Source: an uncultured Chloroflexia bacterium (GTDB taxonomy: Bacteria; Chloroflexota; Anaerolineae; JAAYZQ01). From it: 64,000 nt of DNA. Location of the stretch: assembly GCA_963700285.1 (NCBI GenBank), contig CAVOXA010000010.1, positions 544,001-608,000 on the forward strand, written 5' to 3'. Each line of letters opens with the position of its first letter. The first letter of the stretch is position 1. The notes below the pieces were generated by a model, which was not told the DNA's origin, searched no databases, and worked only from the letters and a program-made list of their open reading frames with translations. A program made the position numbers and the translations under genes. This document shows, piece by piece, positions 55,444 through 64,000 of the stretch.

Positions 55444-55815
55444 CTGATCACCATACTCGTGGCCGATGACGACCACAAACTGCAAAACATGCTCCGCCGC
55501 ACACTCACCTACGAGGGATGCCGCGTCGTCACGGCCAGTGATGGCCAGGAGACCCTGGAGCAGGTCGATGCCAAGAAGCCCCAGGCCATCGTGATAGGTT
55601 GGATGATGCCCGAGCTGGACGGCGTGCAGGTACTGGACCACCTGAGGGCCGCAGGCGATGAGACGCCCATCCTGATGTTCACGGCCCGCGGTGCCATTGA
55701 GGATAGGGTCCAGGGCCTGGAGGGGGGCGCTGACGACTACCTGGTCAAGCCCTTTGCCGCCGTCGAGCTCGTGGCCCGGCTCAACTCCCTGCTACGCCGG
55801 TCGGCAACGGCCTAG
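55444..55815 (+). pseudogene. OmpR-type response regulator relic (receiver only)
   Basis: GADDYLVKPF..EL.AR. The phosphoacceptor Asp reads Gly (IVIGWMMP), the start appears as CTG after AAGGAGG, and there is no winged-helix domain. Confidence 0.7.
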
Positions 55816-55859
55816 TAGGAAAAGCCCCTGTCCCTTGGCTTGCGCCGATGCCTGGCCGC

Positions 55860-56330
55860 CTCTGCCGCGGGTACCGGTCCCCATCGAGCCGATCATCACA
55901 GAGGTATGCCGCCAGGCCCGCTTGCTTGCTCCCGGCCAGATGATTACCTGTGGCTCACCCCCGGACTTGGCTGTATGGGGTGAGGCCGACGCTATCAAGC
56001 AAGTCCTGTTGATCCTGCTGGATAACGCCCTCAAGCATGGCGACGGGCCGATTGCCGTTACGGGCAAGGCGCAGGGCGAACGAGTGGCAGTGAGCATCCA
56101 TGATGCCGGTCCCGGCATCGAACCCGATCTGCTGGCTCATCTCTTTGAGCGCTTTTCCCGGGGCAAAATGGTGCCGGTAGAGTCAGGCAGCGAGGCCGGC
56201 TCGGGGATCGGCTTGGGCCTGGCCATCGCCAAGGCATTGGTCGAGACGCAGGGCGGCACTATCGCCGTGGAGAGCCAAGTCGGGCAAGGCAGTGTATTCA
56301 CGGTGACTCTGGTTCAGGTGTCTGCTCTCT
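55860..56330 (+). pseudogene. Histidine kinase relic (HATPase domain only)
   Basis: LLDNALKH, DAGPGI, FERF and GIGLGL boxes are present; no H-box or sensor domain upstream. Confidence 0.7.
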
Positions 56331-56429
56331 TGATCGGCGCGGACAGGTACTACTTGAAGGCCGACAGAGGTCGGGGACCGCTGTTGCGAAAGAACGACGC
56401 GTTCATCTGCAGCTTTCGGATAAGGAAGG

Positions 56430-56458
56430 CAAAGGGGGTGGACAGTCCACCCCCTTTG
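56430..56458. terminator. Near-perfect palindrome, probable bidirectional terminator
   Basis: caaagggggtggac-a-gtccaccccctttg (14-bp arms) just past the stop at 56475, between convergent genes. Confidence 0.65.
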
Positions 56459-56474
56459 AAGTTCAAAAGACCAG

Positions 56475-59451
56475 CTAATGTGTGACTGTCTCTGCACACG
56501 TGCCGTCAGGCTGCGCTACACAAACCTGGATCTGGAACTCCTCCGCGGGTCCGGCCTGAAGGGCCCGCTCTGAAGAGAGCCCTTCACTCAGTACCCCAGT
56601 GACAAAGTTCGTCGGGCAAGCAGGTTCGCCGTCCAGGTAGGCAGCCACCAGGTCGTCAGACCGGGATGTGACAAAGACCCGCAATGTCGTTGGTTCAAAG
56701 GCGATCCCTTCCTGTGGTTCCTTGATAGCTTGGGCGTAAGCCCGGGCAAAGTACTCTGGCCAGCCCTTGGGCAGCATCAGAAACTTGTCCCAGCCCCCAT
56801 CCGCCTCCGTCGTGGTGACAAAGATGTGACCGGATGTACCAATGAGCGGGTTGACGGCGATCATGCGCAGTGGCACCGGCTCTCCGGCTGGCATGTGCCG
56901 GATCTCGGCCCAGCCCAGGAACGTGTCGGTATTGCCGTCGATGGCCACGATGCGGTAGCTTTCGATGGTGGCCACATAGACCAGATTGCGCACGGCATCT
57001 ACGGCGATGCCATAGGGGCCGCTGCTGTAGATGTCGATTTTGGTCACATCCCCCGCGCTGTCGATCACGGCCACCTTGCCTTCCCCGTGCAACGAAACGT
57101 AGGCCTTGTTCGTGACAGGGTTGATGGCCACCATCGAGGGCGCATTGCCAACGGCGATGGTCCGGTTGACCGTGTCAGTCACCCCATCGATCACCGATAC
57201 CGTGCCGCTGCCATAGTTCGCTACATACACCCGATTGGTGTTCGCATTTGCGGCAATACCATTGGGCTGCTGGCCGACTCCGAGGGTTTTGGTTGATCTG
57301 GGATCACTGGCTTTCAGCACGGTGATCGTGTTCGCCCCGCCATTGGCAACATAGATCCTGTCGTTGGCGGCGTTGTAGGCCACGCCGTTGGGCCCAGTCC
57401 CCACGGGTGCTGTATCCACCGCTGTGTAGGTCTCGCTGTTGATGATCGAAAGTGTGTCGTCATCGTGGTCGGTCACATAGAGCCGTTTCGCAGCACTGTT
57501 GGCCGCCACGCCGTGGGGCGCTTTGCCCACATCGACCGCTTGTTGGAACTGTGGAAAACAATCCGATGGGCCAGGGGGCGGGGTCGGCGTAGGTGGCACC
57601 GGCTCGCCGTCACAGACTTCTACCGATACGTCGTCCAGGTAAAAGCCGGTCACCCCGTTCTCGTCGCCATCATTGTACGCATTGAAGTAGAGCGTAATCG
57701 TCCGGCCGGCGTAGCCGCTCAAGTCGTAGGTCATCCGGGTCCACGAGGCGGTGTTGGCATTGGTCCGCATCAGAATGGCCAGGAGTTGGTCGTGCTCGTT
57801 CAGGAGGAGCGCCTCCTGGCGGTCGCCATCGTCCAACCCAGAGATGGGATAGTACCAGAAGGTCAGCGTCGCTTTGGCAGTATCGGCTGGGAGGGTAATG
57901 GCCTGCCGCACCGACGAGTAGCTGCGAATGTCAGCCTCGCCAGTCTTGAGGCCAAGCAGCAGCCGAACGGTCGCCGGTGTGTACCTGTTCAGTGGTGTAG
58001 CGGGCCGGGCGCGGCGTGATGCCTCTGAGCCAGGCCGTGTTGTCCTCAAAGCTTCCGTTCCGAACCAGTTCCTCGCACTCGGGGCCGACATGCGTGTAGT
58101 TTCTCAGGATGATGGGCAGGTAGAGGTAGCCCTGAGGATGCCGAAAGTAGACCGGCTCGGAGTCGCAGGCCGCGCCGGCACAGGCGGTCACCTGGGCAGT
58201 GCCAGGTATGGTCCCAGACGTCAAAGTGATGGTGGACACGCCACCGCTCGTCAGGTAGGCGCCATTGCGGTTGTGTCCGAACACGCCAAAGGCATCCACC
58301 ACAAGGTAACTGTCTGCCGAGTCGGGGTTCTTTTCCCCTGTGACCACCACTTCGATCAGGTGCGTGGCATAGGGCAGGTCTGTGGCTATCTGCTCTTCCT
58401 GTTGATGCAAAGTGCCCGTACCCGTGCCATCGTCCCAGTACGTGTCAATCCTTCGGAACAGCTCGCCGTCCACATAGACCTCGGCAATGCCGGCGTTGAA
58501 CTGCTTCTGGAAGAAGACCGATGCCATCGTGCCGACAAACTCGTAGGTCACCTTGTCGCCCACTGTGTTGGAGTAGACGCCCTTGCCGCCACTGGCCAGC
58601 GCGTCGCTGTATTCGGTCCAGTCTCCCACCTTGTTCACTGTGGCGCTCTCCGCTTCGGTCGTCAGTGCGCCGATGGGAACCGGGGTGAAGCTAAGCCCGC
58701 CCGGGAAGGTACCCAGGTCCGTTGCATAGACCACCACGGTGCCATCATCCACTGGATCACCCAGCTCGCTGTCTACCTCGGCTGTGAGTGTTGAGGTCGA
58801 GGTACCATCAGCCTTGATGGCACTTGGAGCTGCGCTGAGTTCCAGGGAGTGGGGCTGATGAGCGTCGTTGGTGATGTTGACCTGCCCGTTCCCCAGCGTG
58901 ACGTCAATGGGTAGTCCATCCGGATCGGAGAATGGATCGGTGGTAAGGGTCAAGGTGCTGCTCTCCCCAGCCGTACCCACCGCCTGGAAGGTGATCTCTG
59001 CCAGCCGAGGGTCTCCCGACACGCCGCTGGCAGAGATTGCCGTAAAGACCACCTGGTCCGGCGCTAGCTCAAAGTTGCACAGCGCCGTGTCGAAGAGATG
59101 GCCCGGATCGGCTGTACAGTCCGTGGCTTCCAGCACCGTGGGATCGTACTGGATCTCGATCGTGGTTGCGCCCAGAACCTCGCTGCCCAGGCTGGTATCT
59201 AGAGGAACCATGATGGTGTCCCCAGACGCTACGTTGCCCGAACCGATGGTCAACGTAGTGCCATTGAGCAACCCCGTGTTTGATAGCATGGCTCCCGCTG
59301 CGCTTGGTTCCGCTACGGCGGGCAAGGTCAGTACCAGTAGACCGGCGATCAAGGTGAGGAGGGGAAGCAGCACGCCAACCGATGCCATGTGCTTGGTGTC
59401 GCGCCACGGCCACCACCGCTGAGCCCTGATCACTGGGGGTTTTGACTTCAT
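56475..59451 (-). CDS. Secreted modular protein: cohesin-like, invasin-type Ig, beta-sandwich/CBM-like domains and YVTN propeller (apparent frameshift near 57963)
   Basis: AGGAGG RBS, signal/TM segment, cohesin-like domain about 58872-59258, IKADG.STSTLTA.V.D..G.PV.DGT.V Ig motif, YLYLPIILR, NGSFE domain, and YVTN/YVAN repeats. Confidence 0.75.
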
Positions 59452-59523
59452 GTTTTACCTCCTTGCAACGCGAAGCAGGGATTCGGAGCGAAGCTACCTA
59501 AATCCCATAGAAAAGGACCGTCA

Positions 59524-59542
59524 TCTTATACTGATTATAAGA
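59524..59542. promoter_or_regulatory. Palindromic candidate operator overlapping a -10 element
   Basis: TCTTATA-CTGAT-TATAAGA about 75 bp upstream of the start at 59451; the minus strand contains TATAAT. Confidence 0.45.
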
Positions 59543-59744
59543 CAAACTGACTAGAGAAAACAACCTCTTTAGAGAGGAGTTTAGGGAGGATTTTTTCGCT
59601 ACGATGGGTGTAGACTGAAGCACAGGCCATGGCGGAACCACAGAGGCAGAAACCAGAGTTCTGGGTCATGGACTTTGGATTCCCTGTGCTCTCCGCCTCG
59701 GGGATGAGAACGGGCGCTACAGCGAGAGCCCTATCAAATGCCTC

Positions 59745-62700
59745 CTAACGAGGGGATTCCTGATGGCTGCGCAGGACGAGTGGCAGGTGGAGGCGGTGAT
59801 CCCCCCTTGCACGGACATCGATCTGCCCATTCTGCAAGGCAACCTCGATAGCGCGAGCGCTGGGGTCGGCGAAGGGATCGGCTGCCAGAAACAGCAGGCT
59901 GGTATCTCCTTCGACGCCAGTGGCTTGGAAGTTGATCTGAGCCAATACCACGTCGCCAGATATGCCCTTGGCCGAGACGGCCGTGACACCCACCTTGCCG
60001 GCTGCCATGTCTGCGTTGCACACGGCCAGATCAAAGGCGCTGCCTGGATCTTCCGTGCAACTGGTGACAGCCAGAATATCCGGGTCGTACTGGATCTCGA
60101 TGGTGGCTGCGCCCAGCACATGGTTTCCCAGATTGGTCGTCAGCGGCACACCCAAGCGTCCCCCTGGCGCAAGGCTACCTGAACCGATCCCCAGGGTCGC
60201 GGCAAGGGGCGAGCTGAGCCCCTGCCCAGATTCTCTGGCCATGGCAGCCGGGGGGCAGAACCCGTTGGTCAAGCCAACTTCGCATTGCAAGATGAACATG
60301 GCATCGATAGCATTGCAGGAACCATCGCCGCTCACGTCGCACCCGGCCAGGTATAGTCCAGCTGCTGGCGGCGGGCAGGTAGTGCTGTGGTTGGGGCGCA
60401 GACCGACTTCCCGCTGGAGGATGAACAGAGCATCAATGGCGTTGACGCTGCTATCACAATTCACGTCGCCGGTGGCGGCACGGACCCAAACTTCCCCGTC
60501 ATGGACGCCAACAGCCACGGGCTCCCCGCCGGGTCCGGCAAAGGTCGTGACCACGGCGTCCAGGACTGTACGGTCCCCATCCCAGCCCACGCCGCCGAAG
60601 GTGATCTCGGCCAGAAGCGAGTCGCCGGGCACACCTACGGCGGATATGGCCGTGAGACTCACACTGCCTTCCCTACTGTTGCACAGCGCAGAATCGTAGG
60701 CGTCCTCCGGATCCGGGGTGCAATCGAGCACCTCCACGACAGCCGGGTCAAAGTGGATCTCGATGGTGGCTGCGCCCAGACCGTCGCCGGGTATACCCAA
60801 GATCTTCACCGGGACCCTGATGGTCCCGCCAGGGGCGACCGTGCCACTGCCCACCTGTACCATGGCACTTCCATCTGGGGCGTAATGGGCGGCAGCTGTA
60901 TGCGTGCTGGCGGGCATCGTCAGGCCGCTGCTGGCCGGGTCGCCGGTGCCGGTAAAGTGGTCGAGGTGATGGCCTGTTGCTGGGTGCGGCGTCAGCGTGA
61001 TCGATTCGCCCGCGACATATTGACTGTTTGCACAGCCATCTGAATTGGTGGGGTTCGCAGTTGGATCACCCCCTTGACCCGTGTGGTCCAACGTCAGACG
61101 GTAGCAAGGCATGCCTGTATCCTGGTTCAGCCAGATCTTGTTGGCCACGGGACTGGTTGCAACAAAGGCATCGAGGTCACCGTCGCCATCCAGGTCACCC
61201 AGGGCCACATCCCTGCTCGAGGGAGCGGCTGCGAGCGTGATGCTATCCGGCTGACCTAAAGCCGCAGCTGAGCTGGATGACGTCCCCAGAATCTGGCCGC
61301 TGTCACCAAAGTGGCCGGGCGTTCCGTCCTGGGCGCCACCGGCATTGATCCAGACTCTATCGGCCTGGCCGTCCGTGTTCCCAATGAAGGCATCAAGGTC
61401 GCCATCCCCATCAACATCTCCGAGAGCCACCGCATAGCTCTGGTAGCGACCCAAGCTCTGACCGCTGTTGCGAAAGATGCCTGGTACACCACCTTGAAGG
61501 CCGCCGTCATTGAACCAGACTGTGTTGTCCTCATCGGTGACACGGTTTGCGATCAGGGCATCGAGGTCACCGTCGCCATCCACGTCTCCCAGCGCCACGG
61601 ACACACTGTGCGAGGAGCCCAGATTCTGGCCGCTGTCTCTGTAGCGGCCGGCCGTTCCACCCTGGGCGCCTCCGTCATTGACCCAGATCCGATTTGCCTG
61701 GCCACCGGTGTTTGCCACAAAGGCATCCAGGTCCCCATCGCCGTCCACATCGCCAAGGGCCAGCCCGTAGCTCAGCGAACTGCCCAGGCTCTGGCCGCTG
61801 TCACTGAATGTACCGCCTTCGTTCAGCCATACCTTGTTGCCCGTGCCACTATTGCCCACAAAGGCATCCAGGTCCCCATCGCCGTCCACATCGCCCAGGC
61901 CCACGGCCGCGCTTGTGGCGCTGCCCAGACTCTGTCCACTGTTACTGAACACACCCCTATCATTCAACCATACCTTGTTGGGCTGGTAGTTCAGGTTGGC
62001 CACAAAAGCGTCCAGATCTCCGTCCTCATCCAGGTCACCCAGGGCCACAGCAAAGCTCTGCGCGGTCCCCAGGCTCTGGCCGCTATCGTTGAATCGGCCC
62101 CCATCGTTCAGCCAGACTCTGTTCCCTTGACTGTGGTTCCCGACGAAAGCATCCAGGTCGCCATCACCGTCCAAGTCGCCCAGAGCCACGCCAAAGCTGT
62201 TGGAACTACCCAGGTTCTGGCCGCTGTCGTCAAAGGCCCCAGTGCCACCCGAGACGGCAGACCGGAACTGCCAGGCGTGGGGGATCAGCGGAGTGCCGTC
62301 TGGCGCCTCTACGCCAGGGCTGAGGTTGACCACAATCTCCTCGCCGGGCCGGAACTCGTTGCTGGCCTTAAATTGGACCGAATCCTTGACGAGGCTGTAG
62401 ATTCCCTGATAGCTGCCTGTCTGCTGGCCCCGGACAGCAAAGGTACCGGTGTTCACTGTGCCCAGGTCGACTGTCCGGCTGAATGTCGCAGAGATGGCTT
62501 CGCTGGAAGCTGTCTCGAGCCCGTTGCCCGCAGGGTGGGTGCCTATCACTTCCAGGGGACCCGCGGCGCGGTAGCCCTGGTCATAGTCGCCAAAGTCGCT
62601 GCAGCGGCTGGCGCTACAGGCCGTGACCCAGTAGTAGTAGGGACTGTCGGCCGGAACAGACGGGTCGTCGTAGGAGGCGCCGCTGAGATGGCCCATCTCT

Positions 62701-64000
62701 TCTCTGGGACCGGTGGGTGCAGTACTCCGGTAGACCTTGTAGGACTCGACGTGAGTGGAACTGTTCCAGCTGACGCGGATCTTGTCGGTATAGGTTCCAT
62801 CGCTGGCCTGGATATTGTTGGGAGGGGCTGGCGGAGTGTCGTTGGTAATGGTTCCTCCCTCGTATACCGGAGACCACGCCGCCGTTCCATCGTTCTGCCT
62901 GTCGTCATCGGCATCATAGGCCAGGGTCCGCCAGTAGACAGTGTGGCCGAGCCTATCCGGCCCGATGTCGATGGTTCCAGCATACCACGAGCCGTCCCAA
63001 CGAGCATCGAGATAGCTATCATGTTGTGTCGCATCGATCACGTCGCTGTCCCACCGCAGATAGATGCGGGGGTATTCGGCGTCATCTAGAATGCCGCTGG
63101 GATCGTTCAGCCTGGTCTTGAAAGAGTAGGTGCCTGGCGCCACGTCTCCGCTATCAACGTGGTCTGTCACAACTGGCCCTGACACGTCATCATCCTCAAC
63201 CTGGAACGAATCTAAGGATGGTCCGTGGCTGTCTCTGGTCAACGTTGGCTTTGGCATGTTAAAGGGGGTATTGTTCCCCCCTCTGTCATCCAATACCGAG
63301 ACGGTTTCTTGATCGTGCCAGCGGTCATCCTGATCATAGACCCACCACGTGGTCCGAAGCTGAATGTCGCCCAGCGCCTTGGGAGCGACGCGAAAGGATG
63401 CACCTCCATGCTGTCCATTCTCGGGTATCGAATGTGTGGCGATAGAGATGGTGCTGCTGGGAAGCGCAGGGCTGTAGGCGGCCAAGTCGCCCAGGTCCAC
63501 CGGTTCCGAGATCGCCCCCTGGCCTGGATCCGTCAGTGCTACAGACATGCCGCTGTCATAGGCCTGGCCGAATGAGTCGTACTGGGCCGCGGTACCGTCC
63601 TGAAGCACACCCAACGAGATGTTGAAGACACGCTCCGTTTCGCCATCATCGATGGGTCCGGAGACCTGGATGCCCGTGTTGCCTACCTGCGCAAAGCAGT
63701 TATCGCCAGGGATTCCGGCGACCATTCCCCGCCGACTGGCTGCGGCCGGGGAGTTTGCCTGGCCAAAGAACTCTCCCTCCCAGGCCACGTTCCATTTCTT
63801 GTCAAACAGTGCATAGGATACGGCCAACTCGTGCATTCGCTCGCCGCTGTGTCCTGGCCACCAGTTTGAATACCAGGGATCGTGGATATAGACGACACCG
63901 TCGCTGTCCAGGTCATCGTACCCGATCACCAGGATGGCGTGATTGGCCTCGCCATTCCCGCCGGTATCGACAAAGGCGATGACCGGAGCCTGTAGGGTCG
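59745..64000 (-). CDS. Large modular protein, 5' end outside the window: C39-like cysteine protease, FN3, Ig-like, FG-GAP propeller, cohesin-dockerin-cohesin, C-terminal LHLPLVLR
   Basis: The frame stays open to the window edge. NHAILVIGYDD...IHDPW; FN3 with YYYWVTAC; 7 LGDxDGDGDLDAFV repeats; two EF-hand-like dockerin repeats (GDVNCDSSVNAIDA, CDVSGDGSCNAIDA) flanked by two cohesin-like domains. Confidence 0.8.
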   Translation of the reverse strand, partial: TLQAPVIAFVDTGGNGEANHAILVIGYDDLDSDGVVYIHDPWYSNWWPGHSGERMHELAVSYALFDKKWNVAWEGEFFGQANSPAAASRRGMVAGIPGDNCFAQVGNTGIQVSGPIDDGETERVFNISLGVLQDGTAAQYDSFGQAYDSGMSVALTDPGQGAISEPVDLGDLAAYSPALPSSTISIATHSIPENGQHGGASFRVAPKALGDIQLRTTWWVYDQDDRWHDQETVSVLDDRGGNNTPFNMPKPTLTRDSHGPSLDSFQVEDDDVSGPVVTDHVDSGDVAPGTYSFKTRLNDPSGILDDAEYPRIYLRWDSDVIDATQHDSYLDARWDGSWYAGTIDIGPDRLGHTVYWRTLAYDADDDRQNDGTAAWSPVYEGGTITNDTPPAPPNNIQASDGTYTDKIRVSWNSSTHVESYKVYRSTAPTGPREEMGHLSGASYDDPSVPADSPYYYWVTACSASRCSDFGDYDQGYRAAGPLEVIGTHPAGNGLETASSEAISATFSRTVDLGTVNTGTFAVRGQQTGSYQGIYSLVKDSVQFKASNEFRPGEEIVVNLSPGVEAPDGTPLIPHAWQFRSAVSGGTGAFDDSGQNLGSSNSFGVALGDLDGDGDLDAFVGNHSQGNRVWLNDGGRFNDSGQSLGTAQSFAVALGDLDEDGDLDAFVANLNYQPNKVWLNDRGVFSNSGQSLGSATSAAVGLGDVDGDGDLDAFVGNSGTGNKVWLNEGGTFSDSGQSLGSSLSYGLALGDVDGDGDLDAFVANTGGQANRIWVNDGGAQGGTAGRYRDSGQNLGSSHSVSVALGDVDGDGDLDALIANRVTDEDNTVWFNDGGLQGGVPGIFRNSGQSLGRYQSYAVALGDVDGDGDLDAFIGNTDGQADRVWINAGGAQDGTPGHFGDSGQILGTSSSSAAALGQPDSITLAAAPSSRDVALGDLDGDGDLDAFVATSPVANKIWLNQDTGMPCYRLTLDHTGQGGDPTANPTNSDGCANSQYVAGESITLTPHPATGHHLDHFTGTGDPASSGLTMPASTHTAAAHYAPDGSAMVQVGSGTVAPGGTIRVPVKILGIPGDGLGAATIEIHFDPAVVEVLDCTPDPEDAYDSALCNSREGSVSLTAISAVGVPGDSLLAEITFGGVGWDGDRTVLDAVVTTFAGPGGEPVAVGVHDGEVWVRAATGDVNCDSSVNAIDALFILQREVGLRPNHSTTCPPPAAGLYLAGCDVSGDGSCNAIDAMFILQCEVGLTNGFCPPAAMARESGQGLSSPLAATLGIGSGSLAPGGRLGVPLTTNLGNHVLGAATIEIQYDPDILAVTSCTEDPGSAFDLAVCNADMAAGKVGVTAVSAKGISGDVVLAQINFQATGVEGDTSLLFLAADPFADPSARAIEVALQNGQIDVRARGDHRLHLPLVLRSHQESPR
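61125..62240 (-). repeat. Intragenic FG-GAP tandem repeats (7 blades)
   Basis: Recurring SGQxLG...VALGDxDGDGDLDAFV.N...N.VW.N, with near-identical DNA (aaggcatccaggtccccatcgccgtccacatcgcc) at about 61720 and 61862. Confidence 0.85.

Follow-up and report, generated by a model that had tools for sequence, protein, structure and literature searches.

Cohesin and dockerin modules also occur outside cellulosomes, where their role has been called an open question (PMC9012536). In Ruminococcus bromii, the dockerin of Amy4 binds its own cohesin as well as cohesins of separate proteins, and multimers have been proposed; the same report calls self-recognising pairs known in other systems, citing Archaeoglobus fulgidus (PMC4611034), whose pair works in engineered display (PMC9705933). 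Systems predicted from genomes to organise extracellular peptidases include the planctosome of Nemodlikiaceae in the Planctomycetes (PMC6461901) and a complex of Ca. Stygibacter in the Cloacimonadota (PMC8542988), and single proteins of anaerobic methanotrophic archaea (ANME) combine a dockerin with as many as five cohesins in a non-cellulolytic context (PMC9012536). Cellulosilyticum lentocellum has only one dockerin and one cohesin in its genome, and the two proteins interact (bioRxiv 10.1101/2023.01.24.524588). Here we analyzed a window of 64,000 nt (positions 544001-608000 of contig C10 of genome G000), in which gene A encodes a predicted protease with a cohesin-dockerin-cohesin (Coh-Doc-Coh) cassette near its C-terminus and the adjacent gene B encodes a protein with one cohesin. 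We found that the gene A locus belongs to both domain families and would work like a minimal non-cellulosomal cohesin-dockerin system.

Family membership and predicted fold of the modules

Three cohesins and one dockerin were located in the window:

60480..60872, minus strand: cohesin 1 (Coh1) of gene A, Pfam match, abutting the dockerin without a real linker
60249..60470, minus strand: type I-like dockerin of gene A, with two F-hand repeats and six Cys that co-vary as three pairs (Pfam 29.4 against 22.9)
59808..60203, minus strand: cohesin 2 (Coh2) of gene A, Pfam match, after a low-confidence linker of ~15 residues
58867..59262, minus strand: cohesin B (CohB), the sole cohesin of gene B (Pfam 47.5 against 24.1)

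The cohesins (~130 aa) correspond to three paralogous domains named in the preliminary description, with coordinates within about 10 nt, and the family resemblances proposed there held in hidden Markov model (HMM) searches. Pfam Cohesin (PF00963) matched gene A with 62.8 bits over two stretches and gene B with 47.5 bits (cut-off 24.1), and a genome-wide Pfam scan placed each of the three domains individually above this cut-off. The two-repeat Ca-binding module expected between two of the cohesins was recovered with both repeats at 60249-60470, matching Dockerin_1 (PF00404) at 29.4 bits versus a cut-off of 22.9. Pairwise identity among the cohesins was 42% (54/129), 45% (58/129) and 53% (70/132), the closest pair being Coh2 and CohB. 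A quick tree of 71 of the 139 cohesin rows, in which loci of the giant-protein operon described below were limited to four and 36 of 68 forks were open, placed these two in one clade of 8 rows (SH-aLRT 97) and Coh1 outside it.

When compared with PDB sequences, the cohesin family profile returned cohesin or scaffoldin chains in all 24 rows (judged by names or fold-search titles), with A. fulgidus 2xdh as the best sequence match among solved structures (E 1.6e-8), and the dockerin family profile likewise found dockerins. An AlphaFold2 model of Coh1-Doc-Coh2, built from a 42-sequence alignment, had a predicted local distance difference test score (pLDDT) of 90.2 and a predicted template modelling score (pTM) of 0.64, with low confidence in the linker after the dockerin; the folded models cover the modules of gene A. 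In VIA-align, the Coh1 model matched the type I cohesin 6kgc_A with Z 19.0 and a root-mean-square deviation (rmsd) of 1.6 A over 130 residues, the cohesin model matched 2xdh with Z 18.5, and the dockerin model matched 2ccl_B with Z 9.2 and an rmsd of 1.3 A over 62/62 residues. Type I cohesins ranked first in Foldseek and VIA-align, whereas pilin and Ig folds reached only Z about 10. Thus, the alternative that these domains are unrelated Ig-type or carbohydrate-binding module (CBM) sandwiches was rejected, and the fold check proposed earlier came out in favor of the nine-stranded beta-sandwich of type I cohesins and the two-helix F-hand fold of type I dockerins. The three cohesins and one dockerin are true members of their families, type I-like by sequence and predicted fold.

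Calcium ligands at dockerin positions 1/3/5/9/12 read D,N,D,N,D in the first repeat and D,S,D,N,D in the second; D12 was invariant in 49/49 domains of the locus set and 132/132 of the representative set, and position 3 of the second repeat was often non-canonical in the family (V in 12/49, T in 7/49). The recognition residues of the window dockerin at positions 10/11, 17/18 and 22 were symmetric (AI/AI, LQ/LQ and G/G), as had been noticed for AI/AI, and this symmetry is compatible with dual binding; positions 10/11 differ between repeats in most relatives. On the cohesin side, strands 3 and 6 had conserved small or polar residues (A32 in 75-100%, T/S34, S/T77), kept alike in pre-dockerin, post-dockerin and partner cohesins. 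These residues may lie on the binding face (strands 8-3-6-5), judging from the 1g1k alignment and the contacts of CipA.

The Cys-rich subtype suggested in the preliminary description was also borne out, with Cys pairs kept or lost together. The cohesin pair was present in 139/139 aligned domains and in 117/118 of the representative set, an invariance that is overstated, as the searches favor Cys-bearing sequences and kin are not independent. In the dockerin, the first pair (n=131) was complete in 89 domains, absent in 34 and discordant in 8; the second (n=132) was complete in 128, absent in four and never discordant; and both members of the third were present in 125/126. The locus-set alignment gave the same pattern. 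Since paired loss is what disulfides give, the cohesin and dockerin Cys pairs likely form disulfides that lock the cassette. The predicted partners in the dockerin are position 4 of repeat 1 and the linker Cys, positions 0 and 8 of repeat 2, and position 19 of repeat 2 and the terminal Cys; in the cohesin they are positions 49 and 62.

Distribution, cargo and carriers of the cassette

A scan of species genomes by dockerin motifs alone gave 93 stretches, of which 46 were confirmed as related loci. All but one of these (45/46) carried a Chloroflexota title, in line with the system having been assigned to this phylum; most were Anaerolineae, including the cultured Levilinea saccharolytica. In the class, 25 of 401 genomes (~6%) matched the dockerin profile when 14 candidates were scored in each, 23 of them once, one twice and one three times, and none of 400 other genomes drawn from the phylum. 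The Cys-type dockerin subtype is therefore class-restricted. A Cys-type cohesin was found in every one of the 20 class genomes with a dockerin match under 1e-28.

Domain order was counted in the best 150 representatives, which gave 132 strong dockerin domains. A cohesin followed the dockerin in 76/132 (median gap 16), compared with 41/48 domains of the locus set, and directly preceded it in 46/132, with a gap of -3 to +2 in all 46. The order Coh-Doc-Coh was certain in 34/132, and many other family dockerins were bare and C-terminal, some of them on fragments. The cargo of the cassette comprised C39, C1, S8, M12B and M23 peptidases, alpha-amylase, BNR repeats, arrays of FN3 and of leucine-rich repeats and, on a single protein that has two cassettes, GH9-CBM3-CBM2 plus LPMO10. 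Thus, Coh-Doc-Coh is a portable C-terminal cassette that is blind to its cargo. A protease-specific system was rejected, the cassette being found also on GH9/LPMO and non-enzyme proteins, and the earlier view of proteolysis as the purpose of the modules was not supported. The two-cassette protein (L041:5501-11239, Ardenticatenaceae) reads GH9-CBM3-CBM2-Coh-Doc-Coh-LPMO10-CBM5-Coh-Doc-Coh and ends in a C-terminal hydrophobic segment. The Coh-Doc-Coh order also recurs in a second subtype with non-Cys modules (G157:C127 and G402:C12). Neighbours in the Atlas were cohesin/dockerin clusters from several phyla, so that fused cohesin-dockerin proteins appear to be common in general.

Gene neighbourhoods were scored for 44 loci after two with weak or cut dockerins were dropped. 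A cohesin open reading frame (ORF) lay just downstream in 28 of them, two probably being same-gene frameshifts; 14 of the 28 had five cohesins and followed a giant protein. Seven family proteins had C-terminal hydrophobic anchors. In L. saccharolytica (L036:7931-13781), an FN3 array-Coh-Doc-Coh-cadherin protein is followed by a one-cohesin protein that has a Thr/Pro stalk, a hydrophobic C-terminal segment and a basic tail. A conserved operon of L043-L063, L065, L067 and L068, absent from the source genome, encodes first a giant secreted protein, with open frames reaching about 5400 aa, then Doc-Coh, fused or separate, and then has a five-cohesin scaffoldin-like gene. The C-terminal 1200 residues of the giant protein were 58-84% identical across genomes, with a long coiled-coil-like stretch, and gave no Pfam or PDB match; one weak Atlas row (0.88) likened it to the TcB-binding C-terminal domain of TcA, with no PDB or Pfam support. 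Nearer to the classic enzyme-dockerin layout were L066:6427-10240 and L070:680-12839, where tandem enzymes carry bare C-terminal dockerins: S8 and M14 peptidases, and two metallophosphatases, after which comes a large protein that matched the cohesin family weakly at two places.

The remaining features of genes A and B in the window are as follows:

59745..64000, minus strand: 3' part of gene A, a long ORF running past the window edge
63774..64000, minus strand: C-terminal part of a C39-like (papain-clan) peptidase domain (Pfam on the full protein)
62559..62834, minus strand: FN3-like domain, named from its sequence pattern, with no Pfam FN3 match
62253..62555, minus strand: bacterial Ig-like domain (Big_5; Pfam 33.1 against 23.6)
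61119..62234, minus strand: FG-GAP repeat region, seven GD[LV]DxDGDLDA repeats (Pfam FG-GAP_3, 128 bits)
60876..61106, minus strand: divergent InlB B-repeat (Flg_new_2) spacer (Pfam 25.4 against 23.6)
59769..59792, minus strand: C-terminal [YFHL]LP[LIVM][IVL] tail of gene A (genome-wide motif count)
57931..59451, minus strand: 5' frame of gene B, with signal peptide, cohesin, Ig-like region and internal LP motif (ORF, Pfam)
58102-58128, minus strand: internal LP motif of gene B (sequence)
57959..57963, minus strand: one extra base splitting gene B, absent from the orthologue and from contig X1-1
56475..57962 (ORF 56475-58091), minus strand: 3' frame part of gene B, MAM plus propeller (Pfam)
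57606-57962, minus strand: InhA-like MAM domain (Pfam InhA-like_MAM 29.7 against 26.9)
56613-57560, minus strand: YVTN/NHL propeller (Pfam NHL, YNCE; TIGR02276 on the intact orthologue)

On the genome contig, gene A starts at position 609072, 1072 nt outside the window, and encodes 1775 aa in the order signal peptide, C39-like peptidase, Ig/FN3-like domains, FG-GAP propeller, Coh-Doc-Coh and C-terminal LP-rich tail, the N-terminus being signal-peptide-like. The full protein exceeded the Pfam cut-offs for C39_2 (30.7 versus 24) and C70 (29.4 versus 19). Catalytic His378 (63941) and Asp398 (63881) lie inside the window; Gln262 and the previously missing catalytic Cys, now recovered as Cys268, lie just outside it (C10:608289 and 608271). 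In gene A and 10 homologues, Gln, Cys and His were invariant (11/11) and position 398 was Asp or Asn (11/11). Gene A is thus predicted to encode a secreted papain-clan (C39-like) protease with an intact Gln/Cys/His/Asp set, and a dead protease was rejected on the same alignment. Among PDB sequences the peptidase domain had no significant match, the best being chymopapain (E 0.25) with the Cys and His motifs aligned, and an NCBIfam search gave no family for gene A. The FG-GAP region likely forms a beta-propeller. Most of the cargo reported earlier (C39-like, Big_5, FG-GAP and NHL/YVTN) stood, except that the FN3 stretch had no Pfam FN3 match; as also reported, there was no cellulase domain, neither gene having a glycoside hydrolase (GH) or CBM match over the Pfam cut-off. 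Eight of the 10 protease homologues lacked the cassette, three of these ending in another dockerin-like motif. About 15 kb past the window (C10:622636-632035, minus strand) are two large secreted-looking proteins, one with many Cys/Asp-rich thrombospondin-like repeats and the other with tandem Ig-like repeats, as read from sequence.

Gene B is split in this assembly. Its orthologue in a genome of the same genus (L020 and L026, one orthologue counted once) is an unbroken 992-aa frame, and a DNA alignment with it showed a single extra base in the window, near 57961; an 860-nt contig (X1-1, 95% identity) spans the site and has no base at 57961. The two frames are therefore one gene, and three separate genes were rejected. 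Accordingly, the two adjacent genes of the preliminary description stand once the frames 57931-59451 and 56475-58091 are joined into a single gene, and not as assembled. The extra base is either an assembly error or a private mutation; the orthologous locus carries its own break in gene A, which suggests indel-prone assemblies. A promoter and terminator scan of the locus was at chance (1 promoter versus 2.7 expected; 6 terminators versus 5.9). Contigs of one RNA run match four short pieces of the locus at 98-100% identity; such contigs cannot show transcription. Beside gene B, at 55459-56485, the frame of a response-regulator receiver leads into that of a histidine-kinase ATPase across a junction that is not intact, and the region looks truncated or frameshifted.

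The genome-wide Pfam scan gave six cohesin and two dockerin matches. With the family profiles, only the three window cohesins scored high (133-147 bits; next 65), and the gene A dockerin was the one dockerin match. Altogether the genome has three dockerin-like ORFs, one of Cys type, and cohesin and dockerin modules of the non-Cys kind are found at two further loci. No multi-cohesin scaffoldin was found in the genome, which is 89% complete and has at most two cohesins per ORF. Family searches and hydropathy gave no S-layer homology (SLH) domain, sortase signal or membrane anchor on the gene A protein or the intact gene B orthologue (peak hydropathy beyond residue 80 of 1.40 and 1.28, respectively), and neither gene has a cellulase or CBM3. 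Measured by scaffoldin, many dockerin enzymes, cellulases/CBM3 and anchor, a cellulosome fails in this genome. Thus, "cellulosome-like" was not upheld, with one such dockerin and no multi-cohesin scaffoldin, nor was "surface", though some relatives have an anchor.

The second, non-Cys system on the same contig (C10:799449-801733, plus strand) comprises a cohesin-dockerin protein and then a separate cohesin protein of the form signal peptide-cohesin-membrane helix-Pro-rich-zinc-ribbon-like, and a genome of the same genus (L015) has four cohesins of this type. Contig C22:204351-207636 (minus strand) encodes a secreted M23-like protein (named by motif) that has a cohesin, an LP tail and a dockerin interrupted by a frameshift, adjoined by a repeat array. 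The motif [YFHL]LP[LIVM][IVL] ends 47 of 6270 long stop-to-stop ORFs of the genome, compared with 9.4 expected, and is often followed by Arg; no NCBIfam model matched it. The LP motif is a lineage habit and not part of the cohesin-dockerin system, possibly a lineage-specific sorting or processing signal.

Proposed docking of the gene A dockerin

With calcium, a type I dockerin binds a single cohesin at a time, in either of two orientations if its repeats are symmetric (PMC12484212). The reading we prefer, which we put at about an even chance, is that the gene A dockerin docks in trans and in a Ca-dependent manner onto protein B and other copies of A, via a likely disulfide-locked Coh-Doc-Coh cassette. 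Its partners would be cohesins of the Coh2/CohB type, namely CohB of the neighbouring protein B and cohesins on other copies of A. Because Coh1 abuts the dockerin, it would be rigidly fused and unlikely to fold back on it; Coh2 would hang on a flexible linker, and protein B would be made whole in vivo, adding a MAM/YVTN adhesive end. The outcome would be small cell-free complexes and oligomers, not a multi-enzyme cellulosome. Bare C-terminal dockerins and separate proteins with one to five cohesins in the family imply use in trans. Also in favor of this reading are the fold and family of the modules, the Ca ligands, the 20 class genomes that have both domains, the shared clade of Coh2 and CohB, the conserved cohesin residues on strands 3 and 6, the Doc-Coh2 and three-domain models described below, and the precedent of Amy4. 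So is a genus in which six genomes have no Cys-type cohesins besides the two that an S8-type or truncated Coh-Doc-Coh protein carries together with its dockerin. With one Cys-type dockerin in the genome, only further copies of A would fill the cohesins of A, barring cross-reaction of the two non-Cys dockerins.

Several observations weigh against docking in trans. The three window cohesins have no Arg at position 72, which 55-86% of most groups keep. Co-occurrence of cohesin and dockerin is largely due to their fusion in one protein, and a downstream cohesin gene was found in only 6 of 15 Coh-Doc-Coh loci, three of the six being Levilinea. All five genomes of that genus that were checked with Pfam hold other, non-Cys cohesins and dockerins as possible partners. 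Gene B is broken in this assembly. Finally, a tethered Coh2 (median linker 16) could fill the dockerin in cis, for which a single-chain model from 42 sequences is a weak test.

The last point leads to a rival reading, a closed, stable monomer in which the dockerin sits on its own Coh2 and protein B or another partner binds only by displacement. We consider this unlikely, although a cohesin follows the dockerin in 76/132 representative and 41/48 locus domains on a flexible linker (median 16) and the partner gene is often missing. When Doc-Coh2 was folded alone (pLDDT 92.4), the model was undocked, with a pTM of 0.63, compared with rough estimates of 0.52-0.64 for an undocked and 0.78-0.92 for a docked pair; for the three-domain model, two rigid domains would give 0.55-0.67. 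These values hint at a rigid Coh1-Doc dyad plus a loose Coh2. Moreover, some Doc-Coh2 linkers have only 3-7 residues (HMM envelope), and many family members carry a bare C-terminal dockerin.

A strict 1:1 pair, in which the dockerin binds CohB only and Coh1 and Coh2 act as stalk or stabilisers, much as the X module does in clostridial X-dockerin dyads, seems distinctly unlikely. The seemingly rigid fusion of Coh1 (gap -3 to +2, 46/46) and the stalked one-cohesin neighbour in Levilinea, with its hydrophobic C-terminal segment and basic tail, would suit such a pair. However, Coh2 is the closest paralogue of CohB (53% identity, shared clade), and the cassette is kept in six genomes without any separate Cys-type cohesin. 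VIA-align returned no row in which Coh1 plus dockerin spanned an X-dockerin dyad. We hold equally doubtful an extension of docking in trans in which both cohesins bind dockerins of other copies, building a branched, disulfide-hardened network of any cargo rooted on the one-cohesin neighbour; branching needs binding by Coh1 as well. If this were true, an assembly toolkit specific to Anaerolineae would have two arms, a scaffold-free one made of Coh-Doc-Coh and another that pairs the five-cohesin scaffoldin with the giant conserved secreted protein; the root protein of the network would be membrane-anchored in Levilinea.

That the modules bind no cognate partner, being Ca- and disulfide-stabilised spacers or relics next to a decaying gene B, would fit the patchy distribution (25/401 genomes), the eight of 10 protease homologues without a cassette and the frameshift seen here. 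Against this, conservation across families extends to the Ca ligands, the recognition helices and the surface residues, cohesin and dockerin occur together in 20/20 strong cases, and relatives lack the extra base; it appears very unlikely. A cellulosome-like, multi-enzyme proteolytic complex on the cell surface of this organism is the least credible reading, since five-cohesin scaffoldin-like genes in 14 related loci and hydrophobic anchors in seven family proteins contrast with a genome (89% complete) in which a single Cys-type dockerin and three cohesins of that type occur, a scaffoldin is absent and neither A nor B has an anchor, and with single copies in 23 of 25 carrier genomes.

Comparison with known systems

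Like the non-cellulosomal A. fulgidus system (2xdh; E 1.6e-8, Z 18.5), the gene A system is minimal. The A. fulgidus layout is two adjacent genes, the first encoding both a cohesin and a dockerin, the other a cohesin; the system was reportedly described by Bayer in 1999 and Voronov-Goldman in 2011, and it is not known to carry protease or propeller cargo. The 2xdh alignment lacks the Cys pair, whereas here the Cys pair is present and the dockerin is flanked by cohesins on both sides. Clostridial type I modules (6kgc, 1g1k, 4uyp, 2ccl) share the predicted folds (cohesin Z 17.5-19.0) and symmetric recognition helices, but identity is about 20-24%, and the locus has added Cys pairs, a longer Cys-pinned inter-repeat linker in the dockerin, and no scaffoldin, CBM3 or cellulase set.

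As in Amy4/Sca1 of the R. bromii amylosome, gene A encodes a predicted enzyme with a cohesin and then a dockerin (PMC4611034). R. bromii has 26 dockerins and the wall anchor Sca2 according to the same text, compared with one dockerin of this type and no anchor here. Unlike Amy4, gene A has a second cohesin after the dockerin, protease cargo and conserved Cys pairs, and is known from sequence alone. Because Amy4 binds its own cohesin (PMC4611034), the self-polymerisation proposed earlier, though plausible, is not a new idea. The adaptor of the planctosome likewise combines a dockerin with a cohesin (PMC6461901). The planctosome and Stygibacter systems, which belong to other phyla and are known from genomes alone, are described with a proposed anchor or large scaffoldin and several dockerin enzymes (M12B and M14; S8, C25, GH18 and GH57) (PMC6461901, PMC8542988). 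The ANME proteins differ in being archaeal, with ABC substrate-binding and S-layer cargo and many copies per genome (PMC9012536), and C. lentocellum in being cellulolytic, with its modules on separate proteins (bioRxiv 10.1101/2023.01.24.524588).

Our literature searches, in which matches outside the cited papers were judged by title and abstract start, found no paper on a Chloroflexota Cys-type subtype, although Peer et al. 2009, the main survey of modules outside cellulosomes, may list Chloroflexi examples; the text of PMC12484212 has no mention of "Chloroflex". Among the ANME architectures listed in S4 Data of PMC9012536 there may be Coh-Doc-Coh proteins. As it stands, the gene A system shows no new kind of machine. 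L. saccharolytica is a cultured anaerobe that carries the subtype, which is compact and nearly always single-copy, so that pair, clasp or polymer should be decidable, and the divergent, likely disulfide-locked cohesin-dockerin pair could be of use in designer enzyme assemblies, where it would connect parts stably and possibly orthogonally. The reports cited above already describe Coh-Doc enzymes that bind themselves (R. bromii Amy4) and cohesin-dockerin systems for peptidases (planctosome, Stygibacter); new here is a subtype with paired Cys that is restricted to one class, serves as a portable Coh-Doc-Coh tag and can be studied in a cultured organism.

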